A DNA stretch of 64,000 bases from a virus (lineage: Duplodnaviria > Caudoviricetes). Under the pieces are notes generated by a model, which did not search any database, was not told the origin of the DNA, and worked only from the letters and a program-made list of their open reading frames with translations. Location of the stretch: positions 224,001 to 288,000 of IMG/VR virus record IMGVR_UViG_3300033555_000001, one strand, 5' to 3'. A program made the position numbers and the translations under genes. This document shows, piece after piece, positions 4,630 to 59,228 of this stretch (position 1 is the first letter of the stretch; each line of letters begins with the position of its first letter).

Positions 4630-6038
4630 GTAAAACTGCGCATATTTGGGTAAGAGACGAAGTCTGGATGACTGTGGCCGGCCTTGAGGTATCGGATCAC
4701 ACCTTTCTCTGGAACAAGTTTGGAATTGAAGTTGAGGGTTCATTTTTCATGCCGGCCCGAAAGCTTGGTCGATGGGACGGCAAGCTCAGATTCTTTGACA
4801 AAACCGGCAAAGTATATCTGCGCTTTTTAAACGACATAGTTCCCTTCCTTGAAAAATGGAACTACGAGATTGAGCTGCATGATGAGCGGCGCCCTCTAAA
4901 TCTGGTAACAGGTAGGCTTACACCAACGTGGTTTAATGATCACGGCAGAGCCCAGATACCTGTTACGTTGCGCCCCTACCAAGTAGACGCCGTGAACGCT
5001 TGTTTGCACGAGGGATCTGGCATGGTTATTGCGGCTACTGGCAGCGGTAAAACATGGATGTGCGCCGGTCTTGTTGATGTGGTAGGATCAGAAGGACTGC
5101 GATCAATTACCATTGTTCCCTCCTCTGATCTTGTTGGGCAAACCTCAAGCACCTTTAAACTAGCCGGAATCGAACATGGTCTCTATTCTGGTTCTGAAAA
5201 GAATCTCTATCAGCCACATGTAATTGCTACCTGGCAGGCGCTGCAAAATAATCCAACCGTCATGGCGGACTTTCAGACCGTGATTGTTGACGAGGCGCAC
5301 GGCGCCAAGGCCAGCACAATTGGTGAACTGATTACTGAGCACGGGAAAAATATCGGTTATCGCTTTGGATTTACTGGTACACTGCCCAAGCCACTTACCG
5401 ACCAGTACACGCTGCGTGGATCTATTGGCGAAGTTCTGTATTCAATTACTGCAGCTGATTTAATTCAAATGGGGTTCTTGGCAAGACTTGAAATTGAGCC
5501 TGTTGAGATTACTGAAAATGTCGGAGAAGAATTTCCTGATTACTCCTCGGAAAAAGCCTTTACTAGCCGATCACCCGAGCGCCTGGATTTTATGGCTGAT
5601 TTAATTATTAGCCGTGCTGCTGAGCATGGAAATACTCTGGTGTTGGTAAACACAATTAAGCAAGGACAGCAACTACATAAGCTTATTAAAGACAGCGTGT
5701 TCTTGTGCGGTGCCAGCGAAAATGACATTCGCGCTGAGTGGTACGGGACCTTTGCGCATCGTGACGACTTGATTGTAATTGCAACTGCTGGAATTGCCTC
5801 AACCGGAATTAGTATAGATAGGGTTTTTAATTTAATGCTAATTGACGCGGGTAAGTCGTTTATTCGCGCCATTCAATCAATTGGCCGTGGGTTGCGCAAG
5901 AGCGCCGACAAAGATTTTGTGCATGTGTGCGACGTTTATAGTGGTTTAAAGTGGGGTAAAAAGCATTTTAAAGAACGTGCTCGCTATTATAAAGATGCCG
6001 AATACCCAGTCCTTAAACCAACTAAGGTAAAGCTATGA
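4626..6038 (+). CDS. uvsW: SF2 DNA helicase UvsW
   Basis: ATGSGKT, IVDEAH, GFTGT and QSIGRGLR helicase motifs. Confidence 0.92.
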   Translation: MSKTAHIWVRDEVWMTVAGLEVSDHTFLWNKFGIEVEGSFFMPARKLGRWDGKLRFFDKTGKVYLRFLNDIVPFLEKWNYEIELHDERRPLNLVTGRLTPTWFNDHGRAQIPVTLRPYQVDAVNACLHEGSGMVIAATGSGKTWMCAGLVDVVGSEGLRSITIVPSSDLVGQTSSTFKLAGIEHGLYSGSEKNLYQPHVIATWQALQNNPTVMADFQTVIVDEAHGAKASTIGELITEHGKNIGYRFGFTGTLPKPLTDQYTLRGSIGEVLYSITAADLIQMGFLARLEIEPVEITENVGEEFPDYSSEKAFTSRSPERLDFMADLIISRAAEHGNTLVLVNTIKQGQQLHKLIKDSVFLCGASENDIRAEWYGTFAHRDDLIVIATAGIASTGISIDRVFNLMLIDAGKSFIRAIQSIGRGLRKSADKDFVHVCDVYSGLKWGKKHFKERARYYKDAEYPVLKPTKVKL

Positions 6039-50454: not shown

Positions 50455-50840
50455 GTAAAACAGCGTAAACTCAGTTTTTGAAAAGTTGAACAGGACGGGA
50501 GAGTCGGAGCTCCCCACCTCCACCAAAAGCGCTCTAGTAAGTCTGCAACGCGATCAGACTTTGAAGGCGGGAAACTTGGACTAAGCGTGACGCCTCTAAC
50601 AATTCTCTTAAGGGATTGATTTTGGGAGAGCCAAGTACTAGAGTGTTTTTGATGGGGGTGAATTGGAATCGACTGGCAAAATAGTAAACTACAGAGCGCT
50701 CGAGAGATGACCGACGTAATCGGCATAAAAACCTTAAATGCAAATGATAGCGCATTTTACGGAGACACACGCCTAGCAGCGTGATGCCCGCGAGGCTAAC
50801 CACCTTGTCACCGAACGGTAGGTAAGAAGTTTTACCGCTT
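50455..50840 (+). ncRNA. ssrA: circularly permuted (two-piece) tmRNA; tag ANDSAFYGDTRLAA
   Basis: Acceptor 3' end GGAC-GGGAG/CTCCC-CACCTCC-ACCA at 50493-50525 precedes the 5' end GGGGGTG-AATTGGAATCGAC at 50654; G3-U70 pair; tag 50740-50784; outer boundaries approximate. Confidence 0.88.
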
Positions 50841-52499: not shown

Positions 52500-52575
52500 G
52501 CCGATGTAGCTGAGCGGTTACAGCAGAGGATTCTAAATCCTAAGATCCCCGGTTCGAATCCGGGCATCGGCACCA
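52500..52575 (+). tRNA. amber suppressor tRNA (anticodon CUA)
   Basis: GCCGATG/CATCGGC acceptor, GCTG/CAGC D-stem, loop TT-CTA-AA, TTCGAAT, ACCA; 76 nt. Confidence 0.9.
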
Positions 52576-53105: not shown

Positions 53106-53519
53106 ATGAGCGTTATAGCTAACTTTGTGAATCGTTTATTTCCGTCTTTGGCGCATCATTTTGCTTCATCGTGCACGCTGCAGGTTTCAAAAGCAAATGC
53201 TCAGCAGCTTGAGGCTCTTGATATTGACAAGATACACATTGAATACCGGCCAATCATTGGCGCTCTAGTTCCACGCTTTTATTGGGGTGAAGGTGAAGGT
53301 GATCACTTTCTACCCGACGGTTATTTGCATTTGCCGACGGTTCCAATGATCATAACGCGGAAGGGGCAAAACAGCTATTCAGTCCGCGCTTTTAAAGAAC
53401 ATCAATCGATGAGCGCTGTGGAGTTTAATGGTTTTATCGCTCAGCTGATTATAGATGCAATTACCACGATCAATTATAAAAATTACCTGTTCGACAAACA
53501 CGCGACAAAAACCTGGTAA
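53106..53519 (+). CDS. hypothetical protein
   Basis: GGGA RBS. Confidence 0.65.
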   Translation: MSVIANFVNRLFPSLAHHFASSCTLQVSKANAQQLEALDIDKIHIEYRPIIGALVPRFYWGEGEGDHFLPDGYLHLPTVPMIITRKGQNSYSVRAFKEHQSMSAVEFNGFIAQLIIDAITTINYKNYLFDKHATKTW

Positions 53520-53689
53520 TTTTCCCGGACGGCTCTAAACTTACCGGCGCAACTGAACAAAAAATGGATACGGTGTTTGCGGTTACAAAATAACCAGTAC
53601 CTGTTAGTAACCTGAACTAATTTTATTTGATTCTGAAAACTGTATTAATATACAAGAGTACTAAAGATTAACCAACCACTGGAGTTAAC

Positions 53690-54040
53690 ATGAAGCACTA
53701 GATTGAAAATCAGAAAACATATTTGTACGCAATCTCTCGCCGAGATATTCCTCTCGCGCAACAGGGAATTCAAGCAGCTCATGCTGGAATTGAATTTGCC
53801 TATCAGTACGGTCGCCCTGCCGATCACCATTCCTCGTATATTCATTTAACTGTTCGCAACAAAGAACACCTTGAGCATCTCTGTGCGCAGCTTTTGGCGT
53901 GCGGCCAGCGTACGGCTGAATTCCACGAGCCATATCAAGATTGGGGCTTAACCGCAATTGCAACAATTTTAACAGAAGAAAATCGCCATTTACTTAAAGG
54001 CCTACAACTGTGGCGCCTACCAACTCAGGAGCAATCATGA
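53690..54040 (+). CDS. peptidyl-tRNA hydrolase 2 (Pth2)-like protein with in-frame TAG at codon 4
   Basis: GGAG-N5-ATG AAG CAC TAG ATT GAA... in frame with Y.ISRRDI...Q.IQAAHA...L.V....F.EP...GLTAIA. Confidence 0.75.
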
Positions 54041-54477
54041 ACTATACAATTGTAGCACACAGGGAAACTGATTCAGGTACTGACCGACGCGGTGATTACT
54101 ATCGTAACCCTGGCGATTTTTATTTTAGAGCATTTCAAGAAGATCAAAAAGGCGAGTTCATCAGCAAGTGGGCTGAGTTTAGTCTTGAAAATAATCACGA
54201 TGATTTACACGTTATGATTAACGGGCTGACAGAGGATGAATTCGCCGGCAGCACTGATCCGCTGGATGTTGCCAAATATTCTGAATTTGCAGCCATTACA
54301 GAATTAATGTATCTGAAGCGAGCGGTGCTTCATCATGAGCGTGCAGCAAAAGAAGCCGGTCGGCTGGGCCGTGAGACTGCTCAAAAAGCGGTGAATGAAA
54401 TTAAAAACAAGCTTGTTGCTCGCCAACAGGCTGAAGCTGAAATAATCAGATTACAAAACTCGCTGAGGAACCTATGA
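54037..54477 (+). CDS. hypothetical protein
   Basis: ATG 54037 with AGGAG RBS. Confidence 0.7.
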   Translation: MNYTIVAHRETDSGTDRRGDYYRNPGDFYFRAFQEDQKGEFISKWAEFSLENNHDDLHVMINGLTEDEFAGSTDPLDVAKYSEFAAITELMYLKRAVLHHERAAKEAGRLGRETAQKAVNEIKNKLVARQQAEAEIIRLQNSLRNL

Positions 54478-59055: not shown

Positions 59056-59141
59056 GTTGTTTTAGCTTAAGAAGAGCGTCGGGTCTGCCAATATTATTGG
59101 TGGACCGGGAGGAGTAGGTTCAAGTCCTACAGACAGCACCA
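59056..59141 (+). tRNA. tRNA-Gly(GCC)-like with 12-nt insertion in the anticodon loop
   Basis: GTTGTTT/AGACAGC, T-arm GTAGG/CCTAC, CT-GCC-A then insert. Confidence 0.45.
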
Positions 59142-59154
59142 GTTTTACAATTAA

Positions 59155-59228
59155 CAGAGATTATGATAGTGGTAGTCGTCCTCGTCTGGACCGAGGAAGC
59201 GGAAATTCGATTTTTCCATCTCTGACCA
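59155..59228 (+). tRNA. tRNA-Pro(TGG)
   Basis: CAGAGAT/ATCTCTG (C1-G72, A73), TC-TGG-AC. Confidence 0.78.

Follow-up and report, generated by a model that had tools for sequence, protein, structure and literature searches.

A Pth2-like phage gene with a conserved early in-frame stop codon that covaries with nearby phage suppressor tRNAs

The locus lies in a 64-kb stretch of DNA (hereafter, the window) from a phage genome of 310,728 bp. It combines a tRNA gene of the amber suppressor type with a Pth2-like gene that is interrupted by an amber codon directly behind its start, and it comprises the following features.

50462..50784, + strand: permuted (two-piece) tmRNA (Rfam RF04321, 104.9 bits)
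52500..52575, + strand: tRNA with anticodon CUA (amber suppressor), the presumed key (ARAGORN; Rfam RF00005, 70.3 bits)
53681..53684, + strand: Shine-Dalgarno motif GGAG, 5 nt ahead of the leader ATG (sequence)
53690..53698, + strand: leader ATG AAG CAC, encoding Met-Lys-His (sequence)
53699..53701, + strand: TAG as codon 4, next base A (of ATT), the "lock" (sequence; second assembly; conserved in relatives)
53702..54040, + strand: Pth2-fold body, residues 5-116 of the protein P0001, and TGA stop (AlphaFold, Foldseek, PHROG 3668)
54037..54477, + strand: next gene, 146 aa, function unassigned; start ATG and hydrolase stop overlap as ATGA, preceded at 5 nt by AGGAG

As a first-pass annotation of this DNA had described, the Shine-Dalgarno motif, the ATG, the two codons AAG CAC and the TAG follow one another in frame with a complete ORF. 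Behind the TAG, the same frame continues with ATT GAA AAT CAG AAA ACA TAT TTG and ends with TGA at 54038-54040. The ORF comprises 112 codons with its end at 54040, and reading the TAG as a sense codon results in the 116-residue protein P0001. The TTG at 53723, eight codons past the TAG, is the start codon given in a mechanical ORF list; it is not preceded by a Shine-Dalgarno motif, again in line with the earlier description.

The tRNA-CUA gene is located on the same strand as the Pth2-like gene and 1.1 kb upstream of it, in line with the annotation, and was detected by both ARAGORN and Rfam. It is canonical, with G1-C72 and A73, a CCA that is part of the gene, and UUCUAAA as a normal 7-nt anticodon loop, and represents the sole suppressor among the 25 tRNAs of the genome. 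With such a loop, and with the Pth2-like gene in frame across a stop of three bases, triplet suppression of the ordinary kind would suffice to read the TAG. The permuted tmRNA is encoded 1.7 kb upstream of the tRNA-CUA and 3 kb upstream of the Pth2-like gene. Downstream, the overlapping ATGA and the AGGAG motif point to a possible translational coupling of the 146-aa gene, and read-through of the TAG could also influence two downstream genes, of 146 and 183 aa. Both genes are syntenic in relatives, the 146-aa gene in 11 related loci. The conserved neighbouring genes had no informative function, and their pattern reflects lineage synteny only. A megablast search of the locus against GenBank phages gave zero matches. 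Elsewhere in the window, Rfam reported a tRNA match at 59056-59138 (37.4 bits), just upstream of a tRNA-Pro at 59155-59228, which was not reported by ARAGORN.

We then asked whether the TAG is genuine. A Logan contig from an ice-metagenome run, which may be the source sample of the window, is identical over 53400-54400 at a k-mer depth of 23, the TAG included. This second assembly, together with the conservation of the stop in 74 lineages (see below), rules out a sequencing error or a private mutation, two possibilities that the first-pass annotation had raised itself. A tblastn search against GenBank phages identified 21 jumbo-phage records with 33-41% identity, and eight distinct phages were examined: Yersinia phage fHe-Yen9-04, Serratia phage BF, Acinetobacter phage ME3, Ralstonia phage RsoM2USA, Xanthomonas phage XbC2, Cronobacter phage GAP32, Pectobacterium phage CBB, and Erwinia phage Kaldavass. 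All eight homologs share the arrangement of the window genome, that is, a Shine-Dalgarno motif, an ATG, one or two codons, an in-frame TAG, and then ATT or AAT. The annotation of these eight records either misses the gene or lets it start at an internal codon, so that the conserved N-terminus is lost.

A further 149 loci came from scanning metagenome contigs of IMG/VR and JGI, and deduplication left 110 family genes with a complete domain. In 74 of these 110 non-redundant loci, we found what we term a gate: a start codon, 0-7 further codons, and an in-frame stop located 3-10 codons before strand 1 of the fold. The gate stop is TAG in 69 cases, TGA in three (a count that wrongly includes L169, which is ungated and has an ATG of its own), and TAA in two. 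Leaders of the relatives are 1-8 codons long, with three being the commonest length, and 55 of the 74 gated genes have a strict Shine-Dalgarno motif ahead of their leader. Of the bases 3' of the stop, 57 are A, 16 are G, one is C and none is T, hence a purine in 73 of 74. A 3' purine context reportedly favours amber suppression, as is said to go back to Bossi in 1983 and Pedersen and Curran in 1991. Some database homologs show Gln at the gate position, but here the gene caller had translated TAG as Q. These entries thus add to the gated cases but provide no evidence for glutamine, since this artefact is uninformative on the inserted residue. Judged from the sequences of the relatives, the early in-frame stop is a conserved, functional feature, far beyond chance. 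The two TAA-gated genes, L055 (about 4970-5010) and L149 (about 4960-5000), both read ATG, four codons, TAA, GTA. Neither an ochre suppressor (tRNA-UUA) nor any other suppressor for them was found in the DNA fetched.

The designation of the gene product as Pth2-like was borne out by fold searches, with Pth2, Bit1 and PTRHD1 as top matches, and by profile links to PTH2. An AlphaFold model of P0001, based on 26 homologs, reached a pLDDT of 90.8 and a pTM of 0.84. In this model, strand 1 begins at residue 10 and residues 1-9 are of low confidence. Because the stop falls into this apparently floppy N-terminal tail, any inserted amino acid should be tolerated. Foldseek retrieved 13 PDB matches at E<=0.001, namely, 12 Pth2-family chains (including 1q7s Bit1, 1wn2, 3erj, 2zv3, 1xty, and 1rlk) and one protein without assigned function, Atu0240 (2gax). 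Against the Swiss-Prot models of the AlphaFold database (AFDB), the matches were PTH2 and PTRHD1, with TM scores of 0.62-0.78. At the sequence level, PHROG 3668 'hydrolase' matches the window protein (1.2e-7). The Pfam family PTH2 (PF01981) stayed below its cut-off, with no match to the window protein even at E 0.1, and a narrow family profile (A1) retrieved no PDB relative. For a broad profile (A2), built on 86 representatives from an exhaustive search, 41 of the 86 matched PF01981 at E<=0.01, and the profile matched Pth2 crystal structures with E values of 1.6e-6 to 1e-4. The sequence support for a PTH2 assignment of the window protein is thus transitive only, via profile A2.

The alignments keep the motifs R-x-D-L, Q-x-x-H-A and T-A-I-A, with D19, Q28, H31, and T88 retained. 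The Gly-Lys position of Pth2 is replaced by a gap or by Gln-Gln, and the Asp of the DAG motif aligns with a nearly invariant Glu (E80). We take the Pth2 active site to consist of the Lys of G-K and the Asp of D-A-G, presumably Lys18 and Asp86 in the Pth2 of S. solfataricus. With the former motif replaced and the latter residue changed from Asp to Glu, hydrolase activity is not assured. According to the model and the profile comparisons, the family is a divergent branch of the Pth2 fold that probably has esterase activity.

Next, we compared the gate stops with the suppressor tRNAs in their vicinity. Gated genes with a suppressor in the DNA fetched form 45 TAG/CUA and two TGA/UCA pairs (L042 and L044), with no true mismatch; Fisher's test on the raw stop-anticodon table, which still contained L169, gave p = 0.003. 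In the protein tree, L042, with a TGA gate and two tRNA-UCA genes, is the sister of L046, with a TAG gate and two tRNA-CUA genes (support 98/91). The TGA-gated L044 branches elsewhere within the clade, apart from L042. Therefore, the stop of the gene and the anticodon of the tRNA appear to have changed together, and judging from the tree this joint switch probably occurred twice. All 60 suppressor tRNAs near gated genes lie on the strand of the gene, at a median distance of 1.1 kb, and each of the nine complete genomes with a gate encodes a tRNA-CUA. The anticodon loops of the suppressors are almost uniformly C/U-U-CUA-A-A. The relative L029 shows the same order as the window, with tmRNA, tRNA-CUA and Pth2-like gene. 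Its tRNA-CUA (4753-4824) has a non-canonical T-loop without TTC; ARAGORN failed to detect it, whereas Rfam recognized it at 43.4 bits, so suppressor counts based on ARAGORN alone are lower bounds.

The gated clade encloses an ungated subclade (L148, L056, L059, L066, L068, L069, L153, and L162), whose members have their own ATG just before strand 1. No suppressor tRNA was found in these loci, and three contigs from this subclade, 65-190 kb in length, lack one as well. Covariation of stop and anticodon, the linkage of gene and tRNA, and the joint loss of gate and tRNA together indicate that full-length synthesis very probably depends on the phage suppressor tRNA. This comparative evidence agrees with the first-pass proposal that the hydrolase is made when the suppressor is present. 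Among the points that run counter to such a dependence is that the TTG eight codons past the TAG in the window could give rise to an N-terminally shortened but complete domain.

Two further observations concern the suppressors themselves. In L028, L031, L036, L045, L046, L047, L048, L079, and L085, two tRNA-CUA genes are located side by side, one with A73 and the other with G73. By sequence, such tandem genes with differing discriminator bases suggest two suppressors that would be charged with different amino acids. The nearest neighbours of the window tRNA-CUA are phage tRNA-Arg(UCU) and tRNA-Lys genes, at identities of 0.7-0.8 that are too weak for an amino-acid call.

With midpoint rooting, gated genes fall on either side of the root of the tree, and at least 12 changes are required by its well-supported branches, which means repeated gain or loss of the gate. 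Distant ungated members of the family are located directly upstream of a tRNA-CUA, at distances of 350-1200 nt. Among them are the genes of about 200 cluster C mycobacteriophages, annotated there as 'peptidyl tRNA hydrolase'. In mycobacteriophage Alice, gp150 is followed 250 nt on by a 'tRNA-suppressor (cta)' and 4 kb further by a tmRNA. The Alice locus (L097, about 5980-5990) also contains an in-frame ATG TAG directly before the annotated GTG start of gp150, which may be the vestige of a gate or a chance occurrence; the Shine-Dalgarno spacing favours the GTG. In phage XacN1 (AP018399, 243756-244595), the family member is the C-terminal domain of ORF364. The genome has tRNA-CUA genes, but the domain is ungated and thus provides no target for them. 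ORF364 belongs, with L065 and L147, to a group of ungated fusions in which the Pth2-like domain is preceded by another domain, about 185 residues long. This N-terminal domain contains an H-D-I-G-K-P motif and resembles HD phosphohydrolases.

We also searched for other genes that a suppressor could serve. Scans of the window genome for genes with a leader and a stop gave only weak other candidates, all of which were rejected. One of them, at 210444-210812 of this genome and thus outside the window (MEAR*AETF...), was rejected as a TAG-gated gene because the preceding ORF contains its leader and homologs are absent. Two candidates from other phages were likewise dismissed. The rejected ORF of the window genome and the first of these two are each preceded by a Shine-Dalgarno motif, an ATG, 1-3 codons and a TAG, but are probably ungated. 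The gene starting 'ML*NPSTGPP...' in GAP32 (311451-311864), CBB (308297-308710), and fHe-Yen9-04 (310630-311043) has its own Shine-Dalgarno motif and ATG 26 codons downstream, and a leader-TAG candidate of RsoM2USA was merely the normal stop of a gene in frame with the next gene. As far as these scans can tell, no gene of the window genome other than the Pth2-like one is a convincing client of its tRNA-CUA.

Taken together, the locus can be described as a two-part jumbo-phage cassette that consists of a UAG-reading tRNA and a UAG-locked gene of the Pth2 family, with the enzyme presumably acting as damage control for read-through. We consider this reading probable. Ribosomes would start at the ATG behind the Shine-Dalgarno motif and make Met-Lys-His. 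At the UAG, release by RF1 would leave the cell without enzyme. Alternatively, the phage tRNA-CUA would insert an amino acid in the disordered N-terminal tail, and the hydrolase would be translated. The output of enzyme would in this way follow how active the phage suppressor tRNA is, and up to this point the reading is supported by the comparisons. The enzyme itself is probably an esterase of peptidyl- or aminoacyl-tRNA, and its dose would probably be matched to suppressor activity, clearing by-products of read-through such as dropped-off or stalled peptidyl-tRNAs. In this clearance, the enzyme would act together with the tmRNA of the phage, whose gene lies 3 kb upstream. Several points speak against this reading: TAG ends about a sixth of the long ORFs in the window, so that a strong suppressor would extend the phage's own proteins as well, no ochre suppressor was found for the two TAA-gated relatives in the DNA fetched, and the family member of XacN1 is ungated in a genome with tRNA-CUA genes.

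Three other readings have to be weighed against this one. According to one of them, ATG-AAG-CAC-TAG is a mere upstream ORF, the protein starts or re-initiates at TTG 53723 or at a non-canonical codon, and the suppressor is irrelevant. The position of the in-frame TTG in the window, just before strand 1, would fit such an event. Furthermore, 68 gated relatives were classified strictly, and in about 30 of them the codon behind the stop is ATT, ATC or ATA, which can act as rare start codons. However, the TTG has no Shine-Dalgarno motif. In about 65 of the 74 gated relatives, the stretch from the stop to strand 1 lacks ATG, GTG and TTG altogether, and the codon past the stop is in many cases AAC, AAT, GTT or ACA, which are incapable of initiating. 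With start codons missing from this stretch in most gated relatives, downstream initiation or re-initiation is not the general route. The TTG start, which the first-pass annotation had named as an outcome that would overturn its proposal, thus fails as a general mechanism. In addition, re-initiation predicts neither the pairing of TGA with tRNA-UCA and of TAG with tRNA-CUA nor the loss of the gate where the suppressor is absent. We therefore regard an irrelevant suppressor as improbable. Almost no weight can be given to a recoded genome, in which TAG would be a sense codon throughout (code 15) and the gene one of many with an in-frame TAG. Recoded phages do carry suppressor tRNAs (bioRxiv 10.1101/2021.08.26.457843), a tRNA-CUA is present here, and gene callers had translated several metagenomic relatives with TAG as Q. 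But reading TAG as sense yielded fewer extra long ORFs and less added open-frame length than the same treatment of TGA or TAA. Same-frame ORF pairs split by a single stop numbered zero for TAG in the 310-kb genome, compared with four for TGA and two for TAA, which represent the background. The lack of mid-gene TAG-split pairs indicates that TAG is not generally recoded in this genome, and in the window TAG terminates 20 of 121 long ORFs, about a sixth.

The remaining reading accepts the gate but assigns a different substrate to the enzyme. The hydrolase would act on the suppressor tRNA itself, by deacylation or by hydrolysis of its peptidyl form, so that the tRNA would allow its own antagonist to be made, and the pair would constitute a negative-feedback homeostat that caps read-through. 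The tight linkage of gene and suppressor tRNA, which extends to the distant ungated relatives with their tRNA downstream, is in line with this idea, and so is the repeated gain or loss of the gate across the tree. A suppressor should also be costly where TAG remains a genomic stop. On the other hand, the suppressor-less subclade keeps an intact ungated gene, which is not predicted for a suppressor-specific enzyme, and no specificity determinant was identified. The retention of the gene in this subclade also implies that the job of the enzyme is not strictly tied to the suppressor. For the same reason, we favour feed-forward damage control over negative feedback and judge the homeostat to be unlikely. 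The wider version of this idea appears equally doubtful to us, in which tRNA-CUA and TAG-locked gene would make up an orthogonal, self-contained translational circuit that sets its own level of read-through and has spread among phages of Proteobacteria, Actinobacteria and others.

The cassette shares individual traits with several known systems. With Pth2 (PF01981; 1q7s, 1wn2, 2zv3, 3erj, 1xty) and PTRHD1, the phage family has the alpha/beta fold (TM 0.64-0.78) and the motifs R-x-D-L, Q-x-x-H-A, and T-A-I-A in common. It differs from Pth2 in falling below the Pfam threshold, in lacking Gly-Lys, in the change from Asp to Glu, in its link to suppressors, and in being gated by a stop. Like prfB, which encodes RF2, the phage gene would be a gene for a translation factor whose synthesis depends on the decoding of an early in-frame stop. 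In contrast to prfB, which needs a +1 frameshift and senses its own product RF2, the decoder here would be a separate tRNA gene, and ATG, TAG and ORF share one frame without any frameshift. The bar minigenes of phage lambda (AUG AUA stop) are also ORFs of two to three codons and a stop, driven by a Shine-Dalgarno motif, in the context of peptidyl-tRNA hydrolase, and they are toxic in Pth-deficient E. coli. Unlike these stand-alone minigenes, the phage leader is in frame with the hydrolase gene and conserved as its N-terminus.

The arrangement belongs with stop-codon read-through by phage suppressor tRNAs. In recoded phages (Lak, crAss-like, and others; code 15 or 4), phage suppressor tRNAs likewise make in-frame stops readable, and such recoding has been proposed as a post-transcriptional switch (bioRxiv 10.1101/2021.08.26.457843). 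That survey makes no mention of a hydrolase (bioRxiv 10.1101/2021.08.26.457843). In contrast to those phages, the window genome otherwise follows the standard code; a single gene has a single such stop, right behind its start, and this gene and the tRNA are physically linked. A further parallel is provided by the 'orphan' suppressors of standard-code jumbo phages of more than 300 kb (XacN1, RsoM2USA, and Atu_ph07), which are of the same tRNA-CUA or tRNA-UCA kind. For XacN1, target genes of the suppressor tRNAs could not be identified (PMC5852040). The papers on RsoM2USA (PMC8504454) and Atu_ph07 (PMC6102473) noted the suppressor and inferred potential targets from stop-codon counts, with none named. 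RsoM2USA itself carries an unannotated gated gene, in contrast to XacN1 with its ungated family member. Our full-text literature searches found no account of the gate, as the first-pass annotation had expected. The gate arrangement is thus real, conserved, and apparently unpublished.

A client gene with a covarying stop gives the puzzling suppressor tRNAs of standard-code phages a concrete, testable target. The pair of gate and suppressor recurs in dozens of distant phages, and cultured carriers are available with Serratia phage BF, Cronobacter phage GAP32, Pectobacterium phage CBB, Yersinia phage fHe-Yen9-04, Acinetobacter phage ME3, and Ralstonia phage RsoM2USA. Annotation pipelines systematically miss or truncate the gene, or apply the wrong code. 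Should the homeostat turn out to be true, these phages would possess a natural, tRNA-based control of their own level of stop-codon read-through. If the damage-control reading is true, an enzyme of the Pth2 type would be tied to the consequences of stop-codon read-through, and the cassette would represent a natural case of single-gene control by an orthogonal tRNA, the principle of synthetic genetic-code expansion.
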